From a virus (Duplodnaviria > Caudoviricetes), in the IMG/VR virus record IMGVR_UViG_3300049009_000811, positions 51,720 to 115,719 of that record: DNA of 64,000 bases; one strand, written 5' to 3'. Position 1 is the first letter of the stretch. Each line of letters opens with the position of its first letter. The position numbers and the translations under genes are program-made. Positions 2,504-41,400 of this stretch are shown one piece after another. The notes beneath the pieces are model-generated. The model was not told where the DNA came from. It ran no database searches and saw only the letters and a program-made list of their open reading frames with translations.

Positions 2504-2536
2504 GGAAATTTCCGAATACATGTCCTAAGGGGGAAG

Positions 2537-3880: not shown

Positions 3881-3987
3881 TCGTCTGTCTCCGGTTGGAA
3901 CACGTTGCGCGGTGCGCTGTTTCGCCGCTGGCATCATAGCGGATCTTAGCCTCGCCTCCAAGGCGTTTTTCGCGGGGACAATTGGAA

Positions 3988-4016
3988 TTGACGTGTTTTT
4001 TCGGTTCTGCTAGATT
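3988..4016 (+). promoter_or_regulatory. sigma70-like promoter
   Basis: TTGACG-17 bp-TAGATT with TGn extension, upstream of the AT-rich gene at 4118. Confidence 0.55.
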
Positions 4017-4117
4017 CACGCATCGCGTCGGGACGAAGAATTGCCGTGGGTGGGAATTCCGAAGAGGCAACGCGTTGTTGCCGCCCGGGGCGGTTCAAAA
4101 AGAAAGGTAACAATGTC

Positions 4118-4825
4118 ATGTATTCAAAAGAAAATGTCAGCCGCCTCATGGGTAGCGATGAATCAATTTATAATGCGGGAAATTTTGATCCCATTGGAAC
4201 ACTCGACAAGAATATAAATTTTATAAACGAAAAGTACAATGGACAATTCAATAAAACAGAGGTTTTGTCGACATCATACACAGAGGGCGACAAAGAATTT
4301 GCGGTCATCACATGTCGCGACATGACATGTTTAAATGAAAACAAACTTTTAATGTATCTTACCACTGGGAAAGATGCAAAAAGATTAATGCCGAAAATTC
4401 AAATGGCAGTTAACGAAAACAAGCAACTGTCATTTGTGGAATTTGTGATGTTTCTTTCCTTTAATGATATTGAAACCGAAAGAGATGCTTTTGGAGTTGA
4501 TTCGAATGAAGATGGGCAAATGGAAAAATTCAAATCTTCAGTAACAGGATACAAGCATGACCCATTGTATCCTCCTCTGCCAAAAGAACCCCATGGTTCC
4601 TTGTCCGGCATAGGGTTCATCTATGACGAAGATATGGACGAAAGGGTTTTAATGGCAATAGAACTAGTAAAACACATGAAAAACGTCGTGGCAGTTCATG
4701 AGCATCAAGGCACTTTGGCAATTTACAGTAAAGATCCTTGCGAAATGGAAGAAATAGAAGTGTATGGCGACAATTGGTCTGTTGACAACTATGTGCCAGA
4801 AAACGGAAAATGGGTCGAAGTATAG
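4118..4825 (+). CDS. hypothetical protein (AT-rich island)
   Basis: Long ORF, SD AGAAAGG, AT-rich codons. Confidence 0.75.
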   Translation: MYSKENVSRLMGSDESIYNAGNFDPIGTLDKNINFINEKYNGQFNKTEVLSTSYTEGDKEFAVITCRDMTCLNENKLLMYLTTGKDAKRLMPKIQMAVNENKQLSFVEFVMFLSFNDIETERDAFGVDSNEDGQMEKFKSSVTGYKHDPLYPPLPKEPHGSLSGIGFIYDEDMDERVLMAIELVKHMKNVVAVHEHQGTLAIYSKDPCEMEEIEVYGDNWSVDNYVPENGKWVEV

Positions 4826-5921: not shown

Positions 5922-6395
5922 ATGGCGTCATCGCCCTTCATCAACGACATACCGGCTGCGTACATCCGTTCCGTGCTAGAGATAGACCCGGGGAGCGAGA
6001 CCGGTCTCACCTGGAAGCCCAGGGAGTCCGCCCCCAAGCAGTGGAACACCAGGTACGCCGGGAAGTCTGCCGGCTACAGGCACGCCTCCAAGAACACGGA
6101 GAGGGAGACGTGGAGGGTCGACGTCAAGTACGGGGAGAAGGTCTTCAAGCTGTACGCCCACCGCCTAGTCTGGCTTCTGAAGGAGGGGGAGATAGACCCC
6201 GACTTAGAGATCGACCACGCCAACGGGAATCCCCTGGACAACGGGGTTGAGAACCTGAGGCTGGACACCAAGTCTAGGAACACGCGGAACAGGAAAGCGC
6301 GCCCGCGGTTTCCCCATGGTCTCCATCCAGTTTTCCCAGTAACCTATCCCGAGCCGGCGCGGGCGCCGGCTGCAACCGAAAGGATTTCGCGATGA
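5922..6395 (+). CDS. HNH homing endonuclease-like protein
   Basis: AHRLVW...EIDHANGNPLDNGVENLR (HNH_3 motif). Confidence 0.9.
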   Translation: MASSPFINDIPAAYIRSVLEIDPGSETGLTWKPRESAPKQWNTRYAGKSAGYRHASKNTERETWRVDVKYGEKVFKLYAHRLVWLLKEGEIDPDLEIDHANGNPLDNGVENLRLDTKSRNTRNRKARPRFPHGLHPVFPVTYPEPARAPAATERISR

Positions 6396-6535
6396 ACACG
6401 ATTGAGTTTTTCCAGGAACTGGCGTATGATGCGTTCACGGTGCCGCTGTTCTGGCTCCTGCGCAACTGGGCTACCGCCCTGCCGGCAGCCATGTTCGCCG
6501 GGACCGCGCTTGCGGTAGCGCTCCTGCTTTCCTGA
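6392..6535 (+). CDS. small membrane protein (47 aa)
   Basis: ATGA overlap with the HNH gene; hydrophobic MNTIEFFQELAYDAFTVPLFWLL...AVALLLS. Confidence 0.55.
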   Translation: MNTIEFFQELAYDAFTVPLFWLLRNWATALPAAMFAGTALAVALLLS

Positions 6536-6559
6536 AACCTTTCCCCGGAGGACGACCAG

Positions 6560-6922
6560 ATGTCGAAGATGAGCAACCTTCTCGAAGCCGCGGAGGCTGC
6601 CAGGGCGGCAGCCAAGGCTTCCGACGTGGCGCACGACGCCTACCTTTCCTACTCCAACGCGGTCTTAGCCTCGTACAGGTGCAACCTGAAGGTCGTCATC
6701 GCCTCGCTCAACTGCGAGACGGACCGCTCGGAGGAGAACCTCTCAGCCCTAGCCGAAGCCGAGTCGGAATCGTCCGAAGCGGACGCCGCGGCGAGCGGAG
6801 CAAGGTCTGGGGCGCTGGCTGCCGACCACTACGCCAAGGCTGCCGCGAGGAAGGCTTACGAGGCTAGCGTGAGGGACAAGGGGGCGAGGTTTCCCGGTCT
6901 CGGGCTGGGGCGAGGAAAATAG
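6560..6922 (+). CDS. Ala-rich helical hypothetical protein
   Basis: SD GGAGG, ORF. Confidence 0.6.
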   Translation: MSKMSNLLEAAEAARAAAKASDVAHDAYLSYSNAVLASYRCNLKVVIASLNCETDRSEENLSALAEAESESSEADAAASGARSGALAADHYAKAAARKAYEASVRDKGARFPGLGLGRGK

Positions 6923-6963
6923 ACAGAAAAGTTAATATGGACCCGCGGGTGGCTCGCCCGCCG

Positions 6964-7482
6964 TCACTTCTTCGTGACCGTTATGACGAATGTCCCGAAT
7001 TCCGTCCGCTTGCTCGCGCTGAACAGGGCGAACCCGTCATCCGCGCTCGACCTGTCCTTCAGTTCCTCGATCTCCTTGATGGCGTTTGTGTTGTCGAGGA
7101 ACTTGTTCTTCGAGCCGAAGTGCTTCACCGCCAGCACGTTGAACTGGTATTCGCCGAGGTCGAGCTTCTGGAACCCGGCGCCGTGGAGGGTTTGTCTGCC
7201 GCCCTTGCGCATCAGAGCCTCGAACCCTTTCTCCGTGGCGTAGTGTTCGATCAGGTCCCTCGCCTTCGCCGAGTACTGCTCCTCCTGGAGTCTGGCTGGG
7301 GCTACGGAGGGCAGAACGTGGGAGTACCCGGGCTTCTGCGGCTGTGCTTGCGGCTCGGCTCCGGAGGCGTCCCCGGCTAAAGCCCCGAGGGCGGCTAGCC
7401 CGCCGGCAGCCAGCTGCCGCAGGTTTATCTCGTTGTACAGGTCTTGGTCTCTCTCCCGCAGGAATTCGTTGAACGCGATCAT
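6964..7482 (-). CDS. putative head-internal protein with capsid-targeting-like leader and hydrophobic helix
   Basis: MIAFNEFLRE...NEINLRQLAAGGLAALGALAG. Confidence 0.7.
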   Translation of the reverse strand: MIAFNEFLRERDQDLYNEINLRQLAAGGLAALGALAGDASGAEPQAQPQKPGYSHVLPSVAPARLQEEQYSAKARDLIEHYATEKGFEALMRKGGRQTLHGAGFQKLDLGEYQFNVLAVKHFGSKNKFLDNTNAIKEIEELKDRSSADDGFALFSASKRTEFGTFVITVTKK

Positions 7483-13558: not shown

Positions 13559-13879
13559 TTGAGAGACAACATCGTCGCGCCGACCCTTACCGCCACAAAC
13601 GACCCGAGCCGCAGCCCGCAGTCCAGCGAGGTCACGGCTCAGGTCGAATCCGTGTTCTTGGCTTCCGGCGAGATAAGGAGGATGTCGCCCAGGGAATACG
13701 AGAGGCTTCAAGGTTTCCCCGATGACTGGACTATGGTCCCGCAGAACGGCAAGCCAGCCGCGAGATGCCCCAACGGTCCGAGGTACAAGGCTATCGGCAA
13801 CAGCATGGCTGTGACTTGCATGCGGTGGATAGGTCGGAGGATATTGAGGAGTCAAGCCCCGGCGGACCTCAGTATCTGA
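13559..13879 (+). CDS. free-standing C5 DNA methyltransferase C-terminal module (TRD + motifs IX/X)
   Basis: VAPTLTA TRD; RRMSPREYERLQGFPDDWT; RYKAIGNSM; TTG start after GAGGA, TATAAT upstream. Confidence 0.8.
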   Translation: MRDNIVAPTLTATNDPSRSPQSSEVTAQVESVFLASGEIRRMSPREYERLQGFPDDWTMVPQNGKPAARCPNGPRYKAIGNSMAVTCMRWIGRRILRSQAPADLSI

Positions 13880-15420: not shown

Positions 15421-16152
15421 CTACAGCTTCGTGACGCCGTTCACGAGGAGTTTCCTCCTCTCCCTGTACCTGCCGATCTTTTCAGGGTTGACTTCCCTTC
15501 TGAAGTTCGACTTGCTGCTGTCGTCGAATTCGAAGCCGAAGTATTCGATGTCCTTCCTGTATATGCTTCCGACCATGTCCACCATCTTGTCCGTGTAGTA
15601 TGTCCTGTAGTCCTCGTGCTTGCTCCTGTTCGCGTGGGGTAGCTTTTTCCTGTTTCCCGTGATGTCGGACACGAGCTTGAAGTCCTCTTCGTAGGTGTGG
15701 ATGCTGCAGAAGTAGTCGACCAGGATCTCCCCGTCGGCGCTCACCCAGTCCATGACCGGACTGAGGTAGAACCAATACCGGTTGTCTCCGTCGTGTTCCA
15801 TGTGGATCTCGTCGTCGGTCTGAATGGCGATGTAGTCCTCCATGGTCATTTTCGATATGTGCTTTTCTTTTTTTCTTTTGCTTCTGCCGTTCATGGACAC
15901 GCTTTGGTTATCGAGGAGGTACAAGTAGGCTGAAACCATCCTCTCCCAAGGGTTCCTCGTGTTGGCGAACACGAGGTAGTTTTCGAGGTTTATCTTCTTG
16001 TTGCGGTAGTGCTGCATCGAATAGTGGAGCGGCGACCATTCAGTGTTGCCGAATTCGTTGATGACGGAGCAATTGCCGAAAAGGTCTATTATCGACCACC
16101 CGCCGGTCTTCGGCGGGTGTATGAAAATTATTTTCTCCATCTCGTTTATCAT
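15421..16152 (-). CDS. sulfotransferase family 2 protein
   Basis: FIHPPKTGGWSI (5'PSB), RNPWERMVSAY (3'PB), HANRSKHEDYRTYY...KDIEYFGFEF. Confidence 0.9.
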   Translation of the reverse strand: MINEMEKIIFIHPPKTGGWSIIDLFGNCSVINEFGNTEWSPLHYSMQHYRNKKINLENYLVFANTRNPWERMVSAYLYLLDNQSVSMNGRSKRKKEKHISKMTMEDYIAIQTDDEIHMEHDGDNRYWFYLSPVMDWVSADGEILVDYFCSIHTYEEDFKLVSDITGNRKKLPHANRSKHEDYRTYYTDKMVDMVGSIYRKDIEYFGFEFDDSSKSNFRREVNPEKIGRYRERRKLLVNGVTKL

Positions 16153-16243
16153 ATGTTTATGTAGGCATCCTTGCCTGAAGATCAATCCGTTGAATGTATA
16201 TATCATCGAAGCCTAGCCTAGTCAAACAACTTTCGCAACAATC

Positions 16244-17419: not shown

Positions 17420-18031
17420 TCAGGAGTTTTTTTCCAGTTTGTATTCGACCGCCACGTTTACCGTCATCGTGGGGACTCCGATGTCGGTGCATATGTTGAC
17501 CTTTTTGGCTTGCGCAGCCGTGAGGAAAAGGTCGGCGTTGTTCTTGTCGTGTAGCATCTCGAGGAAGAAGCCGGGTTTCTTCCCGCAGTTCTTCGACATG
17601 ATCTTGAATATGAGCTTGTTGAGCCTGTCCGTCTCCTTCACGTCAGCCTTTATATCCTCCGTCTTGCCAAACGACCTTGACGACACCTCGTGTATCATGA
17701 GGGTCGCGTGCGGGGACATGTACCTCCTGTCGCCCATGGCGAACAGTATGGCTCCGCACGACATTGCTTTGCTCTCGACTATTGTGTGGCACGGGAGCGG
17801 ACATGTCTCTATCCTGCCGACCATCTCCAGCAGGCTGTAGACTTCGCCGCCGTACGAGTCTACGACTATGGGGATGAACGGCTGCCCGGAGTTGGAAGCC
17901 TTGTCCATCTGTTCCGAGAAGTCCTGGCACGACGTCCCGGAGAAGTTCTTGACCCTGATGACGACCGGCTGGTCCATCAGTTCCTCGAGCTTGCACTTGA
18001 TGGCTTTGTCCACTTTTATCGTCTTGTGCAT
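17420..18031 (-). CDS. clpP: ATP-dependent Clp protease proteolytic subunit-like
   Basis: DSYGGEV, KAMSCGA (catalytic Ser), MIHE (His), DLFLTA (Asp). Confidence 0.9.
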   Translation of the reverse strand: MHKTIKVDKAIKCKLEELMDQPVVIRVKNFSGTSCQDFSEQMDKASNSGQPFIPIVVDSYGGEVYSLLEMVGRIETCPLPCHTIVESKAMSCGAILFAMGDRRYMSPHATLMIHEVSSRSFGKTEDIKADVKETDRLNKLIFKIMSKNCGKKPGFFLEMLHDKNNADLFLTAAQAKKVNICTDIGVPTMTVNVAVEYKLEKNS

Positions 18032-19753: not shown

Positions 19754-20083
19754 TCATCGGCTACTGGTCCCGTGCCATGAGTTGATCCTCTGACCTATCC
19801 ACCTCATGACGTTGGTAGCCATCGAGTTGCCGATAGCCTTGTACCTCGGACTGTCTGGGCAGACCTCGGATGGCTTGCCCCTATAGGGTATCTGAGTCCA
19901 GTTGTCCGGGAATCCCTGCAGCCTCTCGCATTCCACTGCCGTAAGGTGTCTCACTTTACCGCCTGCGGCGATGTGCATCCTAGGCAGGGAATCCTTCCCT
20001 CCACTGGCACCGTGGTGCTTGTAGAAGCAAGAGGTTATGGTGTCGGAGATATTCTGGAATACCACCTGCTCGATTTCAATCAT
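19754..20083 (-). CDS. free-standing C5 MTase C-terminal module (1 TRD + IX/X)
   Basis: ISDTITSC TRD; RHLTAVECERLQGFPDNWT; RYKAIGNSMA; ATGA overlap and SD GAAGGA. Confidence 0.85.
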   Translation of the reverse strand: MIEIEQVVFQNISDTITSCFYKHHGASGGKDSLPRMHIAAGGKVRHLTAVECERLQGFPDNWTQIPYRGKPSEVCPDSPRYKAIGNSMATNVMRWIGQRINSWHGTSSR

Positions 20084-20616
20084 AAATCCTTCTTTTCGCA
20101 AAAAGTTGGATTGCGTAGTTCCTGATCCTTCCTCAAGATCCTCTGACCTATCCACCGCATGACGTTGACAGCCATCGAGTTTCCCAGAGCCTTGTACCTC
20201 GGACCGTCGGGGCATTTGTCTTCCGGCTTGTTCCTGTACGGCACAAGAGTCCAGTTGTCCGGGAATCCCTGCAACCTCTCGCATTCGGTCGTGGTCATCC
20301 TCCTGATGTACATTTCGGTCACGGTCGATTCCAGTTTCACTGCGACCACGGACTGGTCGGCGTTGTGACCAGGGCTGTTCGTCTGACCGCCGCCACGGCT
20401 CGATCTTCCCATTAGCGTAGCCGAGACCTCTGGAGTGTAGACGAATTCCTGTTTCACCACCGCCACTCCAGGGATCACCGCGGTCCTGAGCGTGAATGCC
20501 GGTTCTCCCTCTTTTCCCCATCCGGCGGTCTGCTTCCTGGTCGGAGAAAGTGAGCAAAGGTCCATCGGGTCTTTCAGCGGAACGCAGGAGACGCTGTCTT
20601 TCTTCTTGTCAATCAT
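20080..20616 (-). CDS. free-standing C5 MTase C-terminal module (2 TRDs + IX/X)
   Basis: PAFTLRT and VSATLMG TRDs; RRMTTTECERLQGFP; RYKALGNSMA; ATGA overlap with the upstream MTase. Confidence 0.85.
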   Translation of the reverse strand: MIDKKKDSVSCVPLKDPMDLCSLSPTRKQTAGWGKEGEPAFTLRTAVIPGVAVVKQEFVYTPEVSATLMGRSSRGGGQTNSPGHNADQSVVAVKLESTVTEMYIRRMTTTECERLQGFPDNWTLVPYRNKPEDKCPDGPRYKALGNSMAVNVMRWIGQRILRKDQELRNPTFCEKKDL

Positions 20617-22571
20617 ATTTGACCGCCATCCTTCATCGCCACCCTCTGACCTATCCACCGCATGACGTTGGTAGCCATCGAGTTGCCTAAAGACTTGTAC
20701 CTCGGACCGTCGGGGCATTTGTCCGCGTCCTTCTTCCTGTACGGTATCTTGGTCCACAAGTCCGGGAAGCCCTGCAGCCTCTCGCACTCTATCGGGGTCA
20801 ACCTCCGCACCACCATGTGCTGGAACACCATCCCGACATGGTCGCCGTCCGACCTGCTGGCGCGTATCGTCTGCGAGGTGTCGCTTACCGTCTGGCTGTA
20901 GCCGTCGAAAGCGAGAACGTCTTGCTCCTGCTCGAGCAACACCATTCCCATCTTGTCGCAGTCCGACCCGGTACGGATCGTCTGGGAGGTCGTGGACAGA
21001 GTCTGATTGTATCCGTCGAACGCCATGGCTTCTTGCTTCTGCTCGAGAATGTAGTTGGTCTGCTTAGCCCCGGACTCCGCAGCCAGAGCCCCGGCTATCT
21101 GCCCGTCGCCTGATATGAACCTCACCTCGTCACGGGTGTTCTGCTGGAACGCGGATTTGATGACATGGCTTGGTCTGCTGGGTCGGTTCTCTCCCTCGGC
21201 TCGAAGCGTTCCGGAGACCTCGTCCTTCACCCAGTAACCGTGACCAGATTCCCGCATGCACTCCGACTCTACCACGTAAGCCTGCGCGCACGGAGCCCCG
21301 CTCAGTTCGGGAGTGGAAACCTGGATCGCTTCGGCGCTTGTCGTGGCTATGATGTGTCCGTTCATGATCGACTGGTGGGTCAGCTTGCCCCCGCCGCACT
21401 GCGTGTCCAGGCACCCGGCTGTCTCCGGGATCTGGTGCTTGACGAAAAGGCTACCGTTGTCGGCGCTGGCGTTTCCGTTCCATTTCGTGCCGTACGCTGC
21501 GGTGAGGCAGTCAGCCGTCTCCCTGAAAGGTACTGGCTTGCCTTGGCTGTTGGAATCCGCTATCGCCGGCGGGTGAGCCCCCGAAGCGAGAGGGTGGCAA
21601 GGGTCGCCCGGCTTAGGGTTGCTGTAGTTGGACGCGCTGGTTATCTGCGTGGTGTCGAACGGCAGGACGCCGTTCTCATCCTTGCTGGTCGACGAGTAGT
21701 CCTGGACCGACCTCTTCGGCGGCGAGTCTAATCTTTTTTTTTGAGGCACAGCCTGTATGTAGCCGGCGTCCACGCCCTGGTTGCAAGCGAAATTGCCGGC
21801 GTCATGTCCGTTCGGACCGGTGTTGCATGCCAGAGTACCGACCGTCTCGGACCTGCTCGGCGGGGAATCTATTCTGGGTCTTTCGTCTCTGGATCTTTCG
21901 TCGAGACTTCCCGAAGAGCCGACTCCAGAGTCGGAGGGAGCTTCTTGCCCCTGCGCTCCGCCCTCGACAGTATCCCCCTGCACGCTCGCCCACTCAAAAA
22001 GAATCTCTGCGGGATCTGCCCCGTCTCTAGGACAGCTGACAACGAACACACGCTTGCGCCGTTGTGCCAGGTTGAAATATTGGGCATCGAGGCATCGCCA
22101 CGCGATTGCTCTTTTGGGTCCATACACACAACCAGAGTCCTTCCATTTTCCCCCTGGCGGTCGAATTTCACAATCTTCGCCGGCAAGCGCTCCCAGAAAG
22201 CATCCGAATGCGTTGTCCTTTGAGCTGAGTACCCCTGGCACGTTTTCCCAGATGATGTACTTTGGGTTGAACTTGTCTGCGATCTGCACGAAGGTGATTG
22301 AGAGGCTTCCTCGTGCGTCCTCGAGTCCGCGCCGCAGTCCTGCGACTGAGAAGGCTTGGCATGGAGTTCCTCCGACGAGGATGTCGACGTCTCCGATATT
22401 CCAGTTTCTGTATTCATTCATGTCTCCTAGGTTTGGAACGTTTGGGAATCTGTGGGCTAGAACCGCGGCGGGGAAGGCGTCTATCTCGGAGAAAGCAACT
22501 GGCTCCCAACCGAAATCGTGCCAGGCTACGCTGGCTGCCTCTATGCCCGAACAAACTGACAAATACTTCAT
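20613..22571 (-). CDS. dcm: DNA (cytosine-5) methyltransferase with long multi-TRD region
   Basis: Motif I SVCSGIEA, IV GGTPCQAFS, VI ENVPG, VIII QRRKRVFVV, IX RRLTPIECERLQGFP, X RYKSLGNS. Confidence 0.95.
   Translation of the reverse strand: MKYLSVCSGIEAASVAWHDFGWEPVAFSEIDAFPAAVLAHRFPNVPNLGDMNEYRNWNIGDVDILVGGTPCQAFSVAGLRRGLEDARGSLSITFVQIADKFNPKYIIWENVPGVLSSKDNAFGCFLGALAGEDCEIRPPGGKWKDSGCVYGPKRAIAWRCLDAQYFNLAQRRKRVFVVSCPRDGADPAEILFEWASVQGDTVEGGAQGQEAPSDSGVGSSGSLDERSRDERPRIDSPPSRSETVGTLACNTGPNGHDAGNFACNQGVDAGYIQAVPQKKRLDSPPKRSVQDYSSTSKDENGVLPFDTTQITSASNYSNPKPGDPCHPLASGAHPPAIADSNSQGKPVPFRETADCLTAAYGTKWNGNASADNGSLFVKHQIPETAGCLDTQCGGGKLTHQSIMNGHIIATTSAEAIQVSTPELSGAPCAQAYVVESECMRESGHGYWVKDEVSGTLRAEGENRPSRPSHVIKSAFQQNTRDEVRFISGDGQIAGALAAESGAKQTNYILEQKQEAMAFDGYNQTLSTTSQTIRTGSDCDKMGMVLLEQEQDVLAFDGYSQTVSDTSQTIRASRSDGDHVGMVFQHMVVRRLTPIECERLQGFPDLWTKIPYRKKDADKCPDGPRYKSLGNSMATNVMRWIGQRVAMKDGGQI
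21869..22417 (-). CDS. nested alternative-frame MTase beta subunit (M.EcoHK31I-beta-like)
   Basis: SD AGGAGA 5 nt before ATG; C-terminus CSLSAVLETGQIPQRFFLSGRACRGILSRAERRGKKLP conserved with the paralogue. Confidence 0.75.
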   Translation of the reverse strand: MNTETGISETSTSSSEELHAKPSQSQDCGADSRTHEEASQSPSCRSQTSSTQSTSSGKTCQGYSAQRTTHSDAFWERLPAKIVKFDRQGENGRTLVVCMDPKEQSRGDASMPNISTWHNGASVCSLSAVLETGQIPQRFFLSGRACRGILSRAERRGKKLPPTLESALREVSTKDPETKDPE

Positions 22572-22584
22572 CGCGAATCTCCTT

Positions 22585-23922
22585 TTATTTTTCCGACTCG
22601 ACCCGCTCGCCTATCCAGCGCATCACGTTTACGCACATGGAGTTGCCGATAGCCTTGTACCTCGGACCGTCTGGGCATGCCTCGGCTGGCTTGCCCCTGT
22701 ATGGTATCTGAGTCCAGTTGTCCGGGAATCCCTGCAGCCTCTCGCACTCTATGGGAGTGAGCTTCCTCACGATCATGGAGTGGTGGAGAGACATCTGGTT
22801 GTCGCCGGGTTCCTTCCTCAGCGTGCCGCATATGTCCTCCCAGTAGTAGCCACCCATCCTGGACATTGCTCCCGGCTCGAAGGTCGCCGGATGCATCACG
22901 AGGCTTCCGCCCTGGTTCTTGCTCGGGTCCGGCACCGAAGTGTCAAGGGTCTTTATCGTTTCCACTTCCCTGCAGCCGCTGTGCGGGTTGCTTGATTTCA
23001 TCGAGTTGCTCGATTTTGAGTCGAACGAGTACACGACCGCGGGCTGCGCGACCCCGTGCACGCAGGCTGAGGTTATGGTGTTGGATGGGTCGCCCTCGGA
23101 GCCTACGCCGAGACCCTGCCTGTTCATCGCGTCCATCTTTTTCGGGTCTCGGCAGGCGTTGCGGAGGTCGAGGGGTATGGCTTGGACAGCCACGTGCCTC
23201 TGCTTGCTGCCCTGGAGGGCATCAAGCGTGTTCGTGACATCGGTCTCGACATAGCAGCCGCCGGTGTCGCCGAAATTCTGGGGCTTGTACAGGGTCACTC
23301 CGTCTTGTTCGCAACCGCCTCCAGAGCGTTCTTGAGCTTCTCTGGAAGCTGCTTTTTTCTTTCCTCTGCTCTTCGCAGTATCCCTAGACACGCTTTCTGA
23401 CTTAAAAAGTACTTTTGCTGCACGTTCCTGGTCTCCAAGACACCCAACAACGAACACCCTTCGTCTCCGTTGCGGAACTCCGAACCCCGAAGCGTCCAGG
23501 ACCCTATATGCCCACCCGTACCCCAGTTCCCCCAGCCCCCCGAGGAAGGTTCCAAAATCCCTTCCTCCGTGGCTTGAAAGCACCCCGGGGACATTTTCCC
23601 AGACAATCCATCTAGGTTTTCTACTTCTAGCGATCTCAAGAAATCTGAGCATGAGACCGCCCCTTGGGTCGCTGAGCCCTTTTCGCAGTCCCGCGACTGA
23701 GAAGCTCTGGCATGGGGTTCCTCCGACGAGCAGGTCGATTGGATCGATGTCCCATCGTTCATGTTCATTCATGTCTCCTAGGTTTGGTACGTTCGGGAAT
23801 CTTGTCTTGAGAATCTCGCAAGGGAATTTCTCTATCTCTGAGAAGGCTACTGCTTCCCAGCCCATGTGGTGCCAAGCCGAGGTCGCGGCTTCTATGCCGG
23901 AACAGACCGATAGGTATTTCAT
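22585..23922 (-). CDS. dcm: DNA (cytosine-5) methyltransferase, multi-TRD
   Basis: All C5-MTase motifs (GGTPCQSFS, ENVPG, QRRRRVF, ECERLQGFP, KAIGNS). Confidence 0.95.
   Translation of the reverse strand: MKYLSVCSGIEAATSAWHHMGWEAVAFSEIEKFPCEILKTRFPNVPNLGDMNEHERWDIDPIDLLVGGTPCQSFSVAGLRKGLSDPRGGLMLRFLEIARSRKPRWIVWENVPGVLSSHGGRDFGTFLGGLGELGYGWAYRVLDASGFGVPQRRRRVFVVGCLGDQERAAKVLFKSESVSRDTAKSRGKKKAASREAQERSGGGCEQDGVTLYKPQNFGDTGGCYVETDVTNTLDALQGSKQRHVAVQAIPLDLRNACRDPKKMDAMNRQGLGVGSEGDPSNTITSACVHGVAQPAVVYSFDSKSSNSMKSSNPHSGCREVETIKTLDTSVPDPSKNQGGSLVMHPATFEPGAMSRMGGYYWEDICGTLRKEPGDNQMSLHHSMIVRKLTPIECERLQGFPDNWTQIPYRGKPAEACPDGPRYKAIGNSMCVNVMRWIGERVESEK
23295..23768 (-). CDS. nested alternative-frame MTase beta subunit (M.EcoHK31I-beta-like)
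   Basis: Same AGGAGACATGAATG start context; CSLLGVLETRNVQQKYFLSQKACLGILRRAEERKKQLP. Confidence 0.75.
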   Translation of the reverse strand: MNMNDGTSIQSTCSSEEPHARASQSRDCEKGSATQGAVSCSDFLRSLEVENLDGLSGKMSPGCFQATEEGILEPSSGGWGNWGTGGHIGSWTLRGSEFRNGDEGCSLLGVLETRNVQQKYFLSQKACLGILRRAEERKKQLPEKLKNALEAVANKTE

Positions 23923-24009: not shown

Positions 24010-25476
24010 TCAGGAACCAATGTTGTCCAGGAACCTTTTTGTGGACAAAAGCCTTCTGGTCCGCTCGAAATCATCGCCTTTGGGGCTGTGACCGAGCATG
24101 TTGACATACGCGGGGTTGACCTTCTTGCCGAAGACGGTGTCGACGTAGGGGCTCAAATCGGAGTCGTCATGGCTGAGGAACGAGCCCATCTGCGGACCGT
24201 CGAACCTGCCCATCTTCATCCAGTCCTTGATCTTGCCCTTCGTGAGTCCCGTCTTGGCGCTCTTGAGGTCATAGAACATGGACGGGTCGAAGTTGCTTTT
24301 GGACCACTTGTAGAGGCTCACGAGGTGGGCTATGTCGCCAGCCTCCTGCTTCGACCATCCGTTGCCGACAAGCATGTCCTTGAGCTCCTCGGAATCCTTG
24401 TCCTTGGTCAGCCAAGCCGTGGTCAGCCACCTGTCGCCCTTCATGTTGGTCGGCAGATCTTCCAGAGAGTAGTCCGGCATGATGTTGCGGAGCAGACCGA
24501 GGCTGTCCATGAGCCTAAGGTATTTCCTGGAATCTATGTCCGGGTCTTCGATGCTCCCGAAGAACTCCTTCTTGGCGTAGTCCTTGGAAAGGTCTCCAAT
24601 CCTCTCGTTCCCCTTTATGGCGCTGGCGTATTTCTTGGCGACGTCGTCGGGATTGCCGTATTTCGAAAGCATCCTAGCGTACCGCATGGCGGTGCCCGGG
24701 TCTTCCTCTATCCTCGACTTGAAGTCGTCGTTGACGCTTACTATCTGGCTGTTCTTGAGGTGGTGCGCGCCGCCGTACGGGTCTATTAGGTCGGAGTTGT
24801 CGCCGTCGCTGTTGGTCAGCGGTATGTACATGGAGTTTATGGTGAAGTCCCTGTTGCTCGCGTCGTCCTCGAGTGATCCGGTAGCCTCGAAGGAATCGAG
24901 GTCGACCAGCTTGCTCTTGGATGACTTGGACATCGTGGAAAGCTCGAACTTCTCCCCGTTTATGACGATCGTGAATTCCGACTCCTTTCCGCCCTTGTCC
25001 CACCTGGAGGCGTAGAAGTACTTGTTCCTGTTGCTTTCCTTGAGGAGTTTCGCGTATTTCTCGGACGAAGCCTTGCTTTCGTTCTTCGGCTTTATCTCGA
25101 CGAACGAGTTTTCCGGGTGGCTCAGGATCATCCTTATCTCGCTGGCGGTGGCGTCGGTGACGAGGTTGTAGTTCTTCTGCGTCTTGTTCTTGAGGTGGTC
25201 CCTGACCGAGCCTCCGGACAGGTAAAGCGACTTCCTCTTGAGGGTCGGCTCAACCTCGCCCTTGCTTTTCTCTATGGTCGTGTACCCTATGCCCGTTTTG
25301 TCGCTGTTGTCGAAAGACTTCATGAGGATGCGGAGGTTAGCCCTGTTGCCCTTGGAGACGTTGAACGGCATGTAGTCGCTGTCCTTGCTCAGCCTGACCT
25401 TGGACATGACCGTGTTGTTCGGCTTTGTCTCGTTTTGTTCCCTGAATGCCATGAAACGTGAAAATTTGTTTTTCAT
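24010..25476 (-). CDS. CCA-adding/poly(A) polymerase-family nucleotidyltransferase homologue, catalytically degenerate
   Basis: LYLSGGSVRD, RDFTINSMY, IDPYGG..HL present; DxD reads NYN. Confidence 0.85.
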   Translation of the reverse strand: MKNKFSRFMAFREQNETKPNNTVMSKVRLSKDSDYMPFNVSKGNRANLRILMKSFDNSDKTGIGYTTIEKSKGEVEPTLKRKSLYLSGGSVRDHLKNKTQKNYNLVTDATASEIRMILSHPENSFVEIKPKNESKASSEKYAKLLKESNRNKYFYASRWDKGGKESEFTIVINGEKFELSTMSKSSKSKLVDLDSFEATGSLEDDASNRDFTINSMYIPLTNSDGDNSDLIDPYGGAHHLKNSQIVSVNDDFKSRIEEDPGTAMRYARMLSKYGNPDDVAKKYASAIKGNERIGDLSKDYAKKEFFGSIEDPDIDSRKYLRLMDSLGLLRNIMPDYSLEDLPTNMKGDRWLTTAWLTKDKDSEELKDMLVGNGWSKQEAGDIAHLVSLYKWSKSNFDPSMFYDLKSAKTGLTKGKIKDWMKMGRFDGPQMGSFLSHDDSDLSPYVDTVFGKKVNPAYVNMLGHSPKGDDFERTRRLLSTKRFLDNIGS

Positions 25477-25543
25477 TTGATTCCCCAAAAGTAAAAATAC
25501 AAGATTATTTATCTTCCCTGACTCGATTTTTGAAACAAGAATG

Positions 25544-32400: not shown

Positions 32401-35400
32401 ATGGCTCAAATTTCGGACAACCTGGGAAGAGTAGTGGCAGCTCAGAACACCGCCAACATGACCCTGGAGCAGATAAGGGACATGCTCGGCACCAAGCTGA
32501 AAAGCCCGGTGGGCGAAGCCAAGTCGTTCGGCAAGGAAAAGTCGGCGGACCCGGCGCTCCAGAAAATCTCCGACATGTTCACGCAGTACGTCAAGGACTT
32601 CAAGGCGGACGTAGACGACCGCAAGACCTACATCGACGACATGAAGAAGGTGCTGGAGGAAATAAGGGACAAGAAGGAACAGACCGGCAAGGAGAAGAAG
32701 GATTCGACAGCCGAAGCCGCGGACCTGTCGTTCATGGAGCAGTTCGCGAAGATGGCGATGAGCGCCACGTCCATATACACGAAGGACGAGGATGCGAGAA
32801 AATCCCTGACAGAGATAAGCACCACATTGAAGACCATGCAGCAGAGTTCCTCCACCAAGGTCGAGAGCGCTGTCTCGTCGATGGTCGAAATCAAGGGCAT
32901 GGACAACCTGGAGAAAATGGCTCTTAGGGGCATGAAGCCCGGATCCATCTACACCAACGACGCCGGGGTGAGGAAGGTGCTGCGCAAGATATCGTCCACA
33001 CTGAACAAAGTCGCGGAAAAGATGGGCGTGGTTTCGGACGTGGAAAAGTCCATAAAGCCGCCAAAAGACCCGAAGCCTCCGAAACCGCCGAAACCTCCAG
33101 GGGGCAAGAATCCCTCAGAGCATCTGGATGACATAGTCGGTAAACCCCCGGTTGAACCCAAGGAAAAAAAGACGGAGAAAAAAAGGGATCAAAAATTCGA
33201 TCCATATGCCGCGAAAAGGTGGGCTGACAAAACCGAAGAGATAATATCGCAAGGGCTCATGGGAATAAAGCTTACCGATTACATCAGCTTCGAGTCGCTT
33301 CTTGTCCAGGAGAGGAAATTGGTGCAGGAGACAAGGAAGATAGCCTACGAGATAAATGGCGCCACCAAGGGAAGCAAAGCCCTCACCGAATCGTTCGACG
33401 CCATGGGCAAGACGTCAGCCATGACGGGAAAGACTCGCGATGAATTCCAGAAATTATATGTGGACAACCTCAAGAAGGGCATCAGGGAAGCCAAGACGGC
33501 GCAGAAGATAACCGTCGCCCAGCTCAACACGGAAGAACAGCTCGGGATGGAAGCGCAAGCTTTGGGCGATACGTTCTCGGACATGAACCTCAAGCTGAAG
33601 ATGAATTCCTCGCAGGTGGCCGAAGTCGGCAGGGGGATGAGGGAGGTCGCAAGAAACACAGGCATGACCGGCAAGGAACTTGCTGGGGTGATCACGAGTT
33701 CTGCGACATTCGTGAACAACATGCGTAAAGCCGGGACGCTGACGACCGCTTCCTACAAGAACATCGTGGAACTCCAGGCGAACCTAAAGAAGGTCGGCGA
33801 GGAAGGCGGAGGGATGATGGACGCTCTTTCCAGCACGAACAAGCTGCTGGCTGCCGACTCTAAGATGTTCAACTTGCTCGCCATATCCGCCTCGAGGGCT
33901 GGTCTGACGACTGAACTGCTCAACGGAAGCATCACGAAGAGCAAGGACAGCCTCAAGGGAATGGCTGGAGGATTCAAGAGCATAGCCAACCAGTTCGGCA
34001 TAGCCGGAGAGACCGCCGAGGAGATGAGGAAAAACCTCGAGGAACTCGACGACGCCACGAAGAGGAACATAAACATATCTCTGGAGTCGGCTTTAGGTGT
34101 GGAGGCTGGGCAGCTCATATCGCAGTTCGAGGCTATATCCAACTCGAGCAAGACCCTCGCCGACAAGCTTTCCGACCTCAACGCCAAGAAGAAGACGAAC
34201 ATAACCCTTGACGAGAAAGCCGGCATAGCCGAGGAGGAGAGGAAACTCAGGCTAGGCAAGTCGCTGGAAGTGCTCACCGCCCTCGACAAGGCTGCTTCGT
34301 CTGCCACCAACATGGGGGACGCCCTCCAGAGCTTCAGCAAGAAGAGGAGCGAATTCGAGGGCGACCTCAACGCCCTTGGCGTCGCATGGACATCCGAGAC
34401 GGACGTCGCCAGGAAAGCTATAGAGGGATCGCTCCAGGGAGTGAACAAGCAGCTCAAGGATGCCGGAAAGAAAGAGCTAAAGATAGACGCGTCGCAGATA
34501 GAGAAGGCTCTCAAGGACCCTGCTGCCATCAGGGAACTGACGGCTCAGATAACGAAGGCTGAGCAGGAGGCTTCGACCGCTTCCAAGGCTCAGCTCGACC
34601 CGGCATCCGCGTCGGCTCAGAGCCTCAAGGAAATAAACGACAGCATAAGGAATCTGGTCGGCGGCGGCTTGAGCGCGGTATTCAGTTCCGCCTTCGGCGG
34701 AATGTTGGCTACCTTGGGTCTAGTCGTATCCTTCGGGGCGATGGCTGTAAGCTGGCTTTCTGGGATCTACAGCTACTTGAGGTCAGGTGATCAGCTAAAT
34801 AATTTCATACAAGCCTATGAAATGTCAGGACAGAGAAAATTAGAAGAAACAACATCCAAGTCAACCCAGAATCTCAACAAAGAAGCGACGACAGAGGGTT
34901 CAATCTACACGCATGACAGCCACTCGGAGAAGATACTGAACGAGATCCTCGCGGCGCTTAGAGCCGGCAAGTCGCAGGCTGGAGCCGGAGCCGGGACAGG
35001 TGGCGGCGGCGGCTTCAACGTGACGAAGTTCGACCCTCTCAAGTCCGAGCACCACGACCTGGGGATGTCGGCGGCGAAGAAAAAGGACGGACAACTTAGG
35101 GCGGCTGGCAAGAGCGGTATGTCCGATGAAGCAATGAAGAAGATGGCTGCGGGAATAGCGGCGAAGAAGGAGTCGGCGATTCAGGGCGGCGCGGTCGGGT
35201 TCAGGGACCAGAAGAAGCTGGCTGCGAAGACGGGCGGCGGCGAAAAGTTCAACAAGGCTCTGGAGAGGGCGGAGGAGAACCACACCAAGAGGAGGATTAA
35301 GTTCCAGCGGCAGGAGATGGCTCACGACATGAGGCGCATCAAAGGCGAGAAGAAGTGCGACCCATGCCCCGACACCAAGGACGTCGACGTGGAGTCTCCG

Positions 35401-38400
35401 AAGGGAAGCTCGTTCATAGAGGAAACAATGAGCATGCTCAAGTCCATCAAGCCGCAGGAGATGCTGCAGCTCGGTGCGATCATAGCGGCGATGGCTGTGG
35501 GTCTCCTGATCCTCGGCGCCGCGATAATGTTCATAGGCACAAAGATAATAAAGGCTCTCAACCTGGACTTGGCGACGGTGGCGGAGACAGCCGCCGTGAT
35601 AGTCGCGATAGGCGGCGCAGCCGTCGGCATAGCGATGGCTTCCATGGAACTCATCGACATGCTCCAGGAGAACAAAAAAGCGATCAAGAAAATTTCTGAT
35701 CCAAAAAAAGCCAAGGAACTCGCGAAGGTTGCCGGTTCTCTGGCTTTGATCTCGATCGCCACCGTGGCTCTCGGGGCGATGATAGTCAAGGTGTCCGACA
35801 TGATACTGAAGGGTCTTGGTCTGTCGCCAGCCAGCGTGATGGAGACGGCGATGGTCATAGCGGAACTGGGCGCAGCCACCACCGGTATAGTATTGGCTTC
35901 CGTGGGAACCGCGATGGTTCTGGACAATATCAAAAAATATAAAATGATAAGCAATCCCATGGGTACGGTCAAAACAATAATGAACGTCGGCAAGTCCCTG
36001 CTGATGATAACCGGCGCAATCATACTGCTCGGCGCCGCGATCATGAAGATGAGCGAGATGATACTCGGCGGGCTGAACCTCAACCCTTCAGCCATAGCAG
36101 CCACGACGGCTACGATAGTCGCCCTCGGCGTCGGCGTCGGAATCATAGCCACAGCAGTCTTGACTGCCATGGCTGGTCTCAAACTGATTGGCGGAATGCG
36201 TCAGACGATCGAACAGAACATGGATACCATGATAGATGGCGCCATCATACTTCTCCTCTTCACGCCAGCCATCATACTGTTAGGCGCTGCGATCATGAAG
36301 ATGGGCGAGATGATACTCGGCGTCTTCGACCTCAACGCCGCGAAAGCTGTGGAGATATCGACCGCGGTCGTGGCTGTCCTGCTGGGTGCTGCGATAATAG
36401 CCGGGGCTGTCGGGGCTGCGATGTTCGGTCTCGCCACCATCGGAGGCATGTGGTCGATAATATCCGCGGCAATTACGCCGATGACTATAGGAGCAGAAGT
36501 CCTTATGGTGGCGACGCCAGTCATCCTCCTCCTCGGCGCGGCGATCATGAAGATGGGCGAGATGATACTCGGCGCTTTCAGCCTCGACGCGGCAAAGGCT
36601 ACGGAGATATCGACAGCGGTCGTGGCAGTCCTGATGGGCGCTGCCATCATCGCCGGAGCCGTCGGCGCCGCGATGTACGGTCTCTCCGCCCTCGGAGGCA
36701 TGTGGCCGATAATATACGCGGCGCTTACGCCGATGGCTATAGGCGCAGGGATACTTCTGGTCGCCACCCCAGTCATAATCACGTTGGGCGCGGCGATAGT
36801 CGCCATGGGTGACAAGATACTCGGGGCTTTCGACCTGACTGCCGCCAAGGCTACGGAGATATCGACCGCGGTCGTGACGGTGCTCATAAGCGCGGCGATG
36901 ATAGCCGGGGCAGTCGGCGGGGCGATGTTCGGTCTCTCTGCCCTCGGAGGCATGTGGGAAATTATAAAGAGAGCCCTAAAACCGATGGCTAAGGGAGCCA
37001 TGATCCTTCTGGTCGCGACCCCGATAATACTACTGCTGGGCGCGGCGATAGTAGCCATGGGCGACAAGATACTCGGGGCTTTCGACCTGACCGCCGCCAA
37101 GGCTGCGGAAATATCAGCCGCCGTGGTGGCGGTGCTCGTGGCTGCGGCAACCATAGCCGGCGCCGTGGGAGCTGCGATGTTCGGTCTCTCCGCCCTCGGA
37201 GGCATGTGGTCGATAATAACCGGGGCGATCCCGATGATGGCTCTCGGCGCCCTTGTGCTGTTGGTCGCGACCCCGGCAATCATCCTCCTTGGAGGCGCGA
37301 TAGTCAAGATGGGAGAGAAGATACTCGGCGGCTTCGGACTCGACGCCGGGAAAGCCAAGGAGATAGGGGAGGCTGTAGCCTCGATCATAAGCAGCGCGGG
37401 CTCGATAGCCATGACCGTAGCCAAGGCTATGGTCGGTCTAGCCCTTCTCGGCACCCAGGCGGCGTTCATATGGGGATACGTCCCACTCATGTGGATCGGA
37501 GCCAAGACCCTGATGATGCTCATTCCCCCGGTGCTGTTCCTCGGGGCGGCGATAGTGAAGATGGGCGAGTTCATCCTAGGTGTCCTGAAGCTGGACGCCA
37601 ACAAAGCAAAAGAGATATCGGAGGCGATCACCGCCGTCATGTCGGCTGCAGCCAGCATCACGGGATCCGTCATCAAGTCGTCGGTCATGCTGTCGATCAT
37701 GGGGGCGCTGCTTCCCGTGGCGAGAGAGATAGCCTTAATGGCTCTTCTCGGCGTACTCGCCTTCTCGATACTTTCCGTGCCTCTCATCCTGTATGTCGCC
37801 GCCGTCCTCGGTTTCGTCAAGGCGGTGAGCGCGATCATGAACCCCAAGACCGCGGCGGAGATGAGCCAGGGCGTCACGGACGTGATGACAGCCTGCAGGA
37901 CCGTGACCATCGAGATCGTGAAATCAGCCGCCTTGCTCGGGGCGCTAGGGTTGTTGAGCGTTCTGGGTGTTGGGGCTATACTTTATGCCGGTCTGATGTA
38001 TCTCGGCATCGCGGCTCTATTCATACTTTCCAAGCCGATATACGATTACGTGCGCACGATCCGCGACTTCTCGAAGAAGGTGGGGTCTATAATCAACCCG
38101 AAGTTGGCGACGGAGATGGGCAAGGGCGTGACCGACGTGATGACGGCGTGCAGGGACGTGACCCTCGAGATCGTGAAAGCCGTGCCTCTCCTCATGGTTC
38201 TAGGTTCATGGGGCGGGCTGGGAGTTCTAGCCCTACTGTATGCCGGTCTGATGTATCTCGGGGTCATGACCCTGAACATACTCTCGGTTCCGATAGAACA
38301 TTACATCAGTTCGATCGTGGCTTTCTCGAAATCGGTGGGCTCGTCGTTGAACCCGAAGCTGGCGGCGAGCATGGGTCAGGGCGTCGCCGAGGTCATGCGG

Positions 38401-41400
38401 GCGGTCGCCGCGGTGACAATCGAGATCGTGAAAGCCGTGCCTCTCCTCATGGTTCTAGGTTCATGGGGCGGGTTGGGGGCTCTAGCCCTCTTGTACGCAG
38501 GTCTGATGTATATCGGGGTCATGACCCTGAACATACTCTCAGCCCCGATAGGTTATTACATCAGGTCTGTCGTGGCTTTCTCGAAATCGGTCGGCTCTTC
38601 GTTGAACCCGAAACAAGCCGCGGAGATGGGTCAGGGAGTCGCCGAGGTGATGCGGGCGGTCGCCGCTGTCACCGCGGAGATCGTGAAGGCTGTGCCTCTC
38701 CTCATGGGTCTCGCCTCGTTCGGCGGGTTGGGAGCCATGGCTCTCCTGTACGCCGGTCTGATGTATCTCGGGGTGATGACACTTAACATCCTCTCCGCCC
38801 CGATAAAGGAATACATCGACTCCGTCGTCAGCTTCTCCAAGTCCGTGGGCGGCAAGCTGAACCCGAGGATGGCTGCCAGCATGGCCAGCGGCGTCGCCGA
38901 GGTCATGCGCGCGTGCAGCCTGGTGGCGGTCGAGATCGTCAAGAGCGCGCACATGCTCACGGCTCTCTCCGTGCTGTACATGTTCTCCGGGATCATGTCG
39001 AGCCTTATGGGCTACGGCACCGAAGCCCTGAAGGTGATGACCCCTCCGATAATGACGTTCCTGGACGAGATAGTGTCGATGTCGAAAAACCTTCAGAAGA
39101 AGGTAAGCATAAAAGAGGCTGCGAAACTCGCGTACCTCATGAAGATGATCGGCGACCTTGTCCGTTCGGTGGCGAGCGTGGTGAACGACCTCTACAAGAA
39201 CATACTACCGCTGATGAAGGTCGGCTGGATAAGCGACTCCATAGTGGTCCAGCTCGAGAAGGCGATGCCGATGTTCCAGGCGTTCTTCGCGAAGGTCGCA
39301 GATTTCGTGAAGGTTGGCATAGTCGACGCCGTGAGGTCGCAGTTCTCCAACATGAAAGACCTGAGGGACGCGGCGAAGAAGATAGACGCGATGGCTCAGA
39401 TACTGAGGCTCGTGGCTCCGGTGATGAAGATAATGTCCGAGAACATCGCCCCGATGACCCAGCCCGGATTCTTCTCCGCCTCGCCGGTCGACAAGATATC
39501 GAAGGGCATGGTCAAGATGGACGGCTTCTTCAGGTCGGTAGCCGAGTTCGTCAGCGACGGCATCATCAAGCCGGTAATGGAAAAAATGTCGGACAGCAAG
39601 GAACTCAAGGAGGTCGCGAGACGGCTGGCGGCTCTGTCCGTCATCCTCCAGAGCACGGCGACCATGATAGAGGCTACAGCCAAGGTCATAGGGTTCATGG
39701 ACCCGACGTCGTTCTTCTCGGACGCCCCGATGGAGAAGATCATGAAGAACAAGGGCAAGTTCAGGACGTGGTTCAACTCCATAGTCGTACTGATAAAGGA
39801 CGGCATAATAGCCCCCGTAGCCCTGATCGGCGACTCCAAGGTGCTGAAGGACACGGCGATGAAGCTGTGCCAGATGTCGTCGATAATGAAGAGCGTGGTC
39901 AGCGTGATAGAGAGCGTCGCCAAGGCGATAGGCATGATGGACCCGAAATACATATTCTTCGATTCCCCGGTCGACAAGATCATGAAGAACAAGGACAAGT
40001 TCAAGGAGTCTTTCATAGCGATATCGAAGTTCATCAACGATGGCATAGTAAAGCCGGTGGTCTCGGAGTTCGGGGACGCCAGGGAGATCACGGTTGCCTC
40101 AGTGATACTGAAGGCTATGGCGAAGGCGATCTGGGCTGTGCCGAGGGTCATAACCGGTCTGGCGGCTGCGATAAGCCTCATGACCGATTCCAAGAGCTTC
40201 TTCAAGGACACCCCCGTCGACAGCATCATGAAGAACAAGGACCAGTTCGGGATTTACTTCAAGTCGATAGCGAAGTTCCTCAAGGAAGGCATCGTGGACC
40301 CAATCCTGGACGAGATGGGCGACGCGAAGGACATACAGACCGCAGCGAAGATACTGAAAGCCATGAACAAGGTCATAACGTACATACCGAAGGTCATACT
40401 CGGCGTCTCCGAGGGTCTGATGCCCCTGATGCTCGGCGGGAAGAGGCTGGAGAAGGACACGCCGTTCGAGACCATACTGGACAACAAGGACCAGTTCGCG
40501 ACATACTTCAGGACGATAGCGAAGTTCCTCAAGGAGGGAATCGTGAACCCCATCCTGGAAGAACTCGGCGACGGCAAGGACATACAGTCCGCGGCGAAGA
40601 CCCTGAGATCCATGAGCAAGGTCATAAATTACATACCGAAGGTCATAAGGGGAGTTTCGGAAGGTCTGATGCCGTTGATGATGTCCAAGGACCTGACGAA
40701 GGACTCGCCGATGGAAAAGATCATGGAGAACAAGGCGGAATTCGAGACGTACTTCAGGTCGATAGCGAAGTTCCTCAAGGAAGGCATCGTGAACCCCATC
40801 CTGGACGAGATGGGCGACGGCAAGGAGATACAGTCCGCCGGGAAGACACTGAGGGCTATGAGCTCGATAGTCAGGATCATACCGTTGCTCATCAGCAGGC
40901 TGTCGAAGGCTTTCGGTCTTATGAAGCCGGAGGACTGCATAAAGGACTCGCCGATAGCGGCGCTGTCCAAGCACGCCTCCGAGTTCGCTGGGTGGTTCTA
41001 CGAGGTCGCCACGTTCATGAGGCACGGGATAGTCGAGCCGTTGCTCGAGGGAGCGGTGTCGCCGGAGGAGATAGTCTCCGCCAGCGAAGCCATAGACAAC
41101 ATCGCTGTCAACATAGAGAACGTTCCGGGATTCGTGTCGAGGCTTTCAACGGCGATATCCGGTCTCATGAACTCGGAATACTTCGACTACAAGATATTCA
41201 AGAACGCAAAGCTGGTCGGCGACTGGTTCGGCGGCATAGCAAGGAGCCTGCTTGACGGGTTCATATACCCGATCAGGGAGATGCCCGACTCGACGGAGAT
41301 GGAGGAACTCAAGAACCGCCTGTATGTCATATCGGACATAATACCCGCGGTGCAGGAGGTCATAGGTCAGCTGGTGGCGAACATAGCCCCTCTCGTGACG

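Follow-up and report, generated by a model that had tools for sequence, protein, structure and literature searches.

A nested gene in the +1 frame of phage C5 cytosine methyltransferase genes and its possible role as an accessory subunit

In the methyltransferase M.EcoHK31I of E. coli HK31 (YGGCCR), a beta polypeptide is encoded in another reading frame inside the alpha gene. Beta carries motif IX, while alpha carries motifs I–VIII, motif X and the target-recognition domain (TRD), and the enzyme was proposed to be a complex of both polypeptides, whose requirement for activity was demonstrated (Lee, Kam and Shaw 1995, cited in PMC2836561 and PMC3404938). M.AquI (CYCGRG) is a two-subunit C5-methyltransferase that is split between the halves of the variable region (PMC3404938). 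In phages of the Streptococcus thermophilus 5093 group, McDonnell et al. (2017) noticed an "apparent total overlap" of C5-methyltransferase open reading frames (ORFs), for which S. pneumoniae phage MM1 and Tn5252 were also cited; the overlap was remarked upon without selection analysis, partner model or experiment (PMC5601072). Here we analyze a 64,000-nucleotide stretch (positions 51,720 to 115,719) of the Caudoviricetes record IMGVR_UViG_3300049009_000811, hereafter the window, which contains two C5 cytosine methyltransferase genes, MT-A and MT-B, each with a second ORF nested in its +1 frame. We present evidence that these nested ORFs are conserved genes, and that their products may serve as subunits of the methyltransferases in which they are encoded.

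MT-B (22585..23922, minus strand) and MT-A (20613..22571, minus strand) are neighbours and encode complete enzymes of 445 and 652 amino acids (aa), respectively. Both belong to the C5 methyltransferase family PF00145, with E = 4.3e-57 over profile positions 1-322 of 324 for MT-B and E = 3.8e-43 for MT-A, which contains a long multi-module variable region. Motifs I (SGIEA), IV (GGTPCQ), VI (ENVPG) and VIII (QRRxR) lie in a single frame in each gene, and the TRD region, motif IX (RxLTPxECERLQGFP; RKLTPIECERLQGFP) and motif X (GNS) are also read in the main frame of both. Nested gene B (23295..23768, minus strand) is a 157-aa ORF within MT-B, and nested gene A (21869..22417, minus strand) is a 182-aa ORF within MT-A; they match the profile of the nested family with E = 3.8e-48 and E = 1.8e-78, respectively. 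Both lie wholly inside their host genes and begin 154 nt after the host ATG, which gives the +1 offset. As in the rest of the family, the +1 ORF spans motifs VI–VIII and ends ~60 codons past motif VIII; specifically, the nested ORFs of MT-A and MT-B end at host codons 233 and 208, with motif VIII at codons 169 and 150. A profile search of the whole record found only these two copies of the nested type.

The two nested proteins are clearly related to each other (BLASTP E = 8e-21), with ~57% identity across the last ~50 residues, a region in which the host frames of MT-A and MT-B align poorly. The copies come from different subclades and still retain this identity in the C-terminal domain. This conserved helical domain covers 23310..23462 (minus strand; approximately residues 103-153) in nested B, where it reads CSLxxVLE ... 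YFLS ... AC.GILRRAE ... LP..L..AL, and 21893..22054 (minus strand; approximately residues 122-175) in nested A. Both copies carry the family motifs, namely the SGK(T/M) core and LxxxLE...(F/Y)(F/Y)LS..AC.GI..R...R...LP..L..AL, with every invariant column kept; in the helical domain these are the L, E, FLS, AC and GI positions. A shared C-terminal motif had been proposed in the initial annotation of this DNA, and the similarity proved to be real.

The nested start region is encoded by the host codons L-G-D-M-N-E in both genes, and the sequence before the nested ATG is identical in copies A and B (CCTAGGAGACATGA, then ATG). In nested B, the start region (23766..23779, minus strand) comprises an AGGAG at 23775-23779, a 6-nt spacer and the ATG at 23766-23768; in nested A (22415..22428, minus strand), AGGAG occupies 22424-22428 and the ATG 22415-22417. 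An in-frame TGA immediately precedes the nested ATG in both copies. Additionally, the start ATG of nested A is the only ATG, GTG, TTG or CTG codon ahead of the conserved core, the only other near-cognate codon being an ATA at codon 7. Coordinates and sequence therefore confirm the earlier claim that a Shine-Dalgarno (SD) site and an out-of-frame ATG at the motif-II codons open ORFs of 157 and 182 aa. The accompanying claim that the dual-coded stretch is less biased in third-position GC content stood only in part: the overlap (0.56/0.49 in the two genes) is indeed lower than the downstream region (0.77/0.80), but the 51 codons upstream of it are also low (0.59/0.61).

Selection on the +1 frame was analyzed in relatives comprising 80 viral contigs, picked solely on similarity to the N-terminal half of the methyltransferase, plus other loci. 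In all 83 genes, no stop interrupts the +1 frame across motif VI; the median stop-to-stop length is 149 aa versus 40 aa for the +2 frame, and the nested C-terminal motif was found in 77 of the 83. When the codons of 78 relatives were shuffled synonymously, the expected mean length of the +1 ORF was 79 aa, compared with 156 aa observed; for the individual window genes, shuffles gave a +1 ORF as long as the observed one in 4/200 cases for A and 3/200 for B. The alignment of relatives reveals a corresponding change in host codon variability. The entropy of host third positions is 1.5-1.7 bits upstream of the nested start, falls inside the nested ORF to 1.0-1.3 bits in the N part and 0.5-0.9 bits in the C part, and climbs back to 1.5-1.8 bits immediately beyond the nested stop; towards the end of the overlap, the usual order of host positions is inverted, with position 1 the most variable, followed by position 2 and then position 3. 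Since the third position of the host codon is the second position of the nested codon, this pattern signals purifying selection on the +1 protein. The same holds in the window's own lineage, in which third-position differences per site amount to 0.34-0.38 in the nested C-terminal domain versus 0.6-0.88 in the flanks. Together, these sequence comparisons indicate that the nested ORFs are almost certainly real conserved genes, not chance ORFs.

The nested family is widespread among phages. Searches with the two nested proteins by tblastn matched 170 and 133 phage records, and each of the ten matches that were opened lies beneath a methyltransferase coding sequence (10/10). The offset was +1 in all seven cases worked out, which are Morganella phage Mecenats66, Burkholderia phage Bcep22, Roseobacter phage CRP-821, P1-like phage RCS47, mycobacteriophage Dove, Streptococcus phage Javan102 and P1. 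None of these seven records, including that of the heavily annotated P1, carries an annotation of the nested ORF, which bears out the earlier expectation that standard annotation misses such genes. A profile built from 48 nested proteins matched 5070 clusters at E <= 1e-3 and 3938 at E <= 1e-10 among 1.84 billion representatives. In P1 itself (AF234172.1; L096 among the relatives), the nested +1 ORF occupies 2292..2783 in the C5 half of dmt (1994..4258), with 163 codons from stop to stop; it ends ...LLSQVLE...RYFLSSKACAGILRRGEKR... and is not annotated in a record with 535 features. One relative, P0006, appeared to be a free-standing nested gene and was rejected, as it is nested in an intact methyltransferase ORF that had been split by the gene caller.

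Start sites differ among the relatives. The motif-II start of the window copies is shared by only a few of them (L003, L005, L008, L081 and L086), while most begin ~50 codons further downstream at a conserved "MQLTMF" ATG, usually with GGAG 7-8 nt upstream. An ATG is present upstream of the nested core in every relative, and an SD-like site precedes 24/58 nested starts, in comparison with 9.4% of the other out-of-frame ATGs in the same genes and 30/58 of the true methyltransferase starts. The SD-like sites, together with the presence of an ATG upstream of the core in all relatives, favour independent initiation. Additionally, in the metagenome contig L005 (2980..3633), the methyltransferase contains an insertion between motifs II and IV, which is of low complexity in the host frame; read in the +1 frame, it lengthens the nested protein at the N-terminus by a TRD-like segment (…ITLAIRGRDD…GTANAVLTPNGG…). 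It is apparently the nested frame for which this insertion was selected.

The nested proteins have no relative in Pfam, NCBIfam or the PDB sequence set. Specifically, a profile search of PDB sequences returned only a single-chain variable fragment (scFv, E = 2.1), and in a scan of PHROGs the only hit was that of copy B on phrog_16143 "DNA methyltransferase", which was weak (E = 3e-6). Foldseek searches with the nested model and with a model of the fused form, which is described below, yielded nothing at E <= 0.001, and neighbours of the nested protein in the ESM Atlas are unnamed clusters, mostly viral. A resemblance of the nested domain to the segment that follows motif VIII in canonical enzymes found no support in sequence, as the nested alignment reached a probability of 0.2% when compared with E. 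coli Dcm by hhalign. AlphaFold2 with the family alignment modelled the N-terminal 120 residues of nested A as a low-confidence, strand-poor region, and the C-terminal domain as a confident three-helix unit with helices at 126-132, 143-156 and 162-174 (predicted local distance difference test, pLDDT, 93-97). When the model of the fused form P0018 was aligned to M.HhaI by VIA-align, the match began at the first residue of the adapter helical domain (the nested domain as it occurs in the fusion) and covered M.HhaI residues 189-306, the part just after motif VIII (Z 4.8, root-mean-square deviation 3.1, 79 aligned residues). VIA-align gave Z values of only about 5 to C5-methyltransferases, and such values are frequent between unrelated chains. 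This model comparison is a weak hint that the adapter may sit where single-chain enzymes have the first segment of their small domain.

A further feature is present near the N-terminus of many relatives. The pentapeptide QL[STDN][LMI]F, for example QLDLF or QLTMF, occurs there in 90/267 relatives, versus 0.2 expected from shuffling, and resembles the bacterial sliding-clamp binding motif. Its position relative to the host frame varies by subclade; examples are L089 (1360..1839), L016, L034, P0006 and P0102. No QLxLF-like pentapeptide is present in either window copy.

Natural fusions connect the nested domain with the methyltransferase. In at least 20 independent clusters, the nested domain forms the N-terminus of a long protein that goes on, without a change of frame, to the variable region and to motifs IX and X. 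In relatives L090 and L091, the catalytic half (motifs I–VIII) stops ~50 codons past the adapter region, and the +1 ORF begins ~140 codons before the end of the catalytic half and continues to motif X. The block "GGLGTDFDCDGG" is read in the adapter frame in L091 and in the catalytic-half frame in L004, and thus the two layouts differ in which frame continues beyond the adapter domain. Mycobacteriophage Dove has three separate pieces: besides the catalytic half and the nested ORF, a TRD-IX-X gene lies downstream. By the Rosetta-stone argument, these fusions suggest that adapter and methyltransferase work together. When the C-terminal part of copy A was used to look for longer in-frame fusions by a word-indexed search, none came up, owing to insufficient sensitivity, as the profile search did find them. 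Additionally, both tblastn and profile searches found the nested domain only inside genes of one methyltransferase clade.

Structure prediction points in the same direction. The predicted complex of MT-B and nested B, each with its own alignment, obtained a score of 0.62, compared with 0.00 for the best of three controls; a score of 0.62 is reached by 58/80 solved complexes and by 2/110 mismatched pairs. At least 36% of contacts agree between runs, with a partner pLDDT of at least 48. On the methyltransferase, the predicted interface covers residues 115-174 and 382-396 (motif IX); on the nested protein, it covers residues 78-89 and 104-152. Specifically, nested residues 78-89 are predicted to contact methyltransferase residues 136-140 and 165-169 around motif VIII, and the nested helical domain (104-152) is predicted to contact the motif IX segment 382-396. 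The model thereby supports binding of the nested protein to the methyltransferase.

As the best explanation of these findings, we propose that the nested gene encodes a trans-acting accessory or structural subunit of its own methyltransferase, a proposal to which we give an even chance. The ORFs, their conservation, the purifying selection on the +1 frame and the fusions are observed; translation, binding and a requirement for activity we infer. Each methyltransferase gene would thus hold a second gene in the +1 frame that is translated from its own ATG and SD site, and the product of 157 or 182 aa would be long and flexible in its N-terminal part and compact in its C-terminal domain of three helices. 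This protein would most likely bind the methyltransferase in which it is encoded, where the catalytic domain meets the small DNA-recognition domain, touching the strand ahead of motif VIII and the helix of motif IX, and would act in trans. In the minority of relatives that carry the adapter together with the TRD and motifs IX and X on one +1 chain, the result would be a two-chain enzyme with a gene overlap of ~140 codons. In the form found in the window, the catalytic half is fused in frame 0 to TRD-IX-X, leaving the adapter alone as a separate nested product.

Several points weigh against this proposal. The main-frame enzymes look complete and might work without a partner. In the nested ORFs of the window, the first ~57 codons show no extra constraint, and the nested domain matches no characterised protein in sequence or fold among Pfam, NCBIfam, PDB sequences and Foldseek. 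The complex is a prediction, in which the partner's own fold is uncertain, with a pLDDT under 50 in one run. Besides, some of the fused forms could be pseudogenes or the result of frameshift errors, since forms that are shifted elsewhere also occur in databases.

The rival that survives best accepts a real, translated nested gene and places its product away from the methyltransferase, for example as a regulator, an anti-defence factor or a binder of a host protein, with the overlap serving co-expression and compactness. Disorder is typical of overprinted viral accessory proteins, and the N-terminal two thirds of the nested protein are disordered; the enrichment of the clamp-like pentapeptide among the relatives, and the presence of all ten motifs in the main-frame enzymes, would also suit such a role. 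Against it stand the restriction of the domain to the genes of one methyltransferase clade, its covalent joining to TRD-IX-X in at least 20 lineages, a complex prediction that passes its controls, and the lack of the clamp-like motif in the window copies themselves. We therefore consider a function elsewhere unlikely.

Another route to the +1 frame would be ribosomal frameshifting or transcriptional slippage, giving a truncated isoform that consists of motifs I-VI/VIII and the helical tail. At least 8 clusters of ~245-aa proteins, which leave the methyltransferase frame for the nested one close to "PPGG", look like such an isoform, and MT-A contains a G5A4 run exactly at the switch place. This run (CCAGGGGGAAAATGG; 22146..22154, minus strand) lies in the "PPGGK" codons, where several database relatives switch frames, and is probably a hotspot of indels or sequencing errors. 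In relative L006, however, an indel moves both frames together, which indicates a change in the DNA or a sequencing error; on this ground, the ~245-aa proteins made of a methyltransferase N-half and a nested tail were rejected as products of programmed frameshifting. The switch points also vary between clusters, the shift required is +1 whereas GGGAAAA is a site of the -1 type, and the +1 frame is open and constrained, with its ATG and SD site, well upstream of the putative shift site. Frameshifting is thus a very improbable source of the nested product. Least credible of all is that the window ORFs are non-functional relics from a two-chain ancestor, in which high GC content and the constraint acting on the methyltransferase frame would have prevented stops. 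In favour of this reading, the single-gene shuffles give p values of only ~0.015-0.02, the N-terminal parts lack extra constraint and part of the overlap is conserved in the host frame as well. Against it, in the C-terminal domain host third positions are the most conserved and first positions the least, a pattern that host-frame constraint cannot yield, and both window copies, from different subclades and with 57% identity in this domain, retain every invariant family residue and the identical SD-ATG arrangement.

The window also contains free-standing parts of such enzymes. Directly downstream of MT-A sit, at 19754..20616 (minus strand), two free mini-genes that consist of a TRD and motifs IX/X, one of 178 aa (20080..20616, minus strand) with no catalytic motifs and no nested-type domain, and the other of 109 aa (19754..20083, minus strand) with no catalytic motifs and no adapter domain; a further mini-gene of this kind at 13559..13879 (plus strand) was reported in the initial annotation. 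A three-part combinatorial assembly with the free TRD-IX-X mini-genes, as suggested in the initial annotation, is conceivable. A broader scheme can be imagined, which we regard as distinctly improbable. The nested protein would be a free "glue" adapter, one part of which grips the catalytic half while its helical domain grips motif IX of any TRD-IX-X unit, such that the three free mini-genes could swap onto the two cores and form a combinatorial, multi-specific kit of three kinds of parts; in many relatives, the adapter would in addition link the enzyme, by its N-terminal QLxLF, to the sliding clamp of the host, in analogy to DNMT1 and PCNA.

The surroundings are those of a large phage genome. 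The source record measures 115.7 kb and is estimated to be ~24% complete, and the phage is likely very large. Directly upstream of MT-B, a 492-aa ORF (24010..25488, minus strand) carries a head domain of the poly(A) polymerase / tRNA nucleotidyltransferase type (PF01743, E = 3e-19; phrog_2244). A 404-codon antisense ORF (21781..22995, plus strand) that crosses the MT-A/MT-B junction is probably a by-product of codon bias. Elsewhere in the window are a sulfotransferase-family ORF (15421..16206, minus strand; PF03567, PHROG galactose-3-O-sulfotransferase), a ClpP-like head maturation protease (17420..18031, minus strand) and a single ORF of 3917 aa (32401..44154, plus strand).

In bacteria and phages, long overlaps between genes of the same strand with selection on both frames are, to our knowledge, rare and not well documented. 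The nested gene described here is present in thousands of phage methyltransferase genes, from phages of Proteobacteria, Actinobacteria, Firmicutes and cyanobacteria; it occurs in the model phage P1 and is yet missing from annotation, Pfam, NCBIfam and the PDB sequence set. If activity requires the nested protein as a subunit, phage C5-methyltransferases that were produced from the annotated ORF only may have been assayed in the absence of an essential component, with consequences for anti-restriction work, epigenome tools and methylome prediction. P1 offers an easy experimental system for the family, and the fused-adapter and free-adapter forms provide a natural system in which to follow the interconversion of split enzymes and overlapping genes.

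Compared with the known systems, the window resembles M.EcoHK31I in that a second polypeptide is encoded wholly within a methyltransferase gene in an alternative frame. Unlike in that enzyme, motif IX is in the main frame of both window methyltransferases and the nested proteins carry no motif IX; given this distribution of motifs, the nested protein is not a beta polypeptide of the EcoHK31I type. The initial annotation had proposed an alpha/beta heterodimer like M.EcoHK31I, of which the nested gene itself stands, and a partnership with the methyltransferase appears likely from the fusions and the complex prediction, while the equation with a motif-IX beta falls, with motif IX, the TRD and motif X all lying in the main frame. 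M.AquI finds its counterpart in relatives L090, L091 and Dove, in which the catalytic half and the TRD-IX-X half are on separate chains. The two window enzymes differ from M.AquI in being single-chain, and the split relatives differ from it in a ~140-codon overlap between the two genes, the second of which starts with the adapter domain. The streptococcal phages match the window in family and layout. Phage 5093 encodes a complete 319-aa methyltransferase (6067..7026) together with a 143-codon +1 ORF (6212..6643), which is not annotated in its RefSeq record, ends ...CSLLDILE...KFFLS... and belongs to the same family as the window nested genes. The nested layout has thus already been noticed in print for streptococcal phages (PMC5601072).

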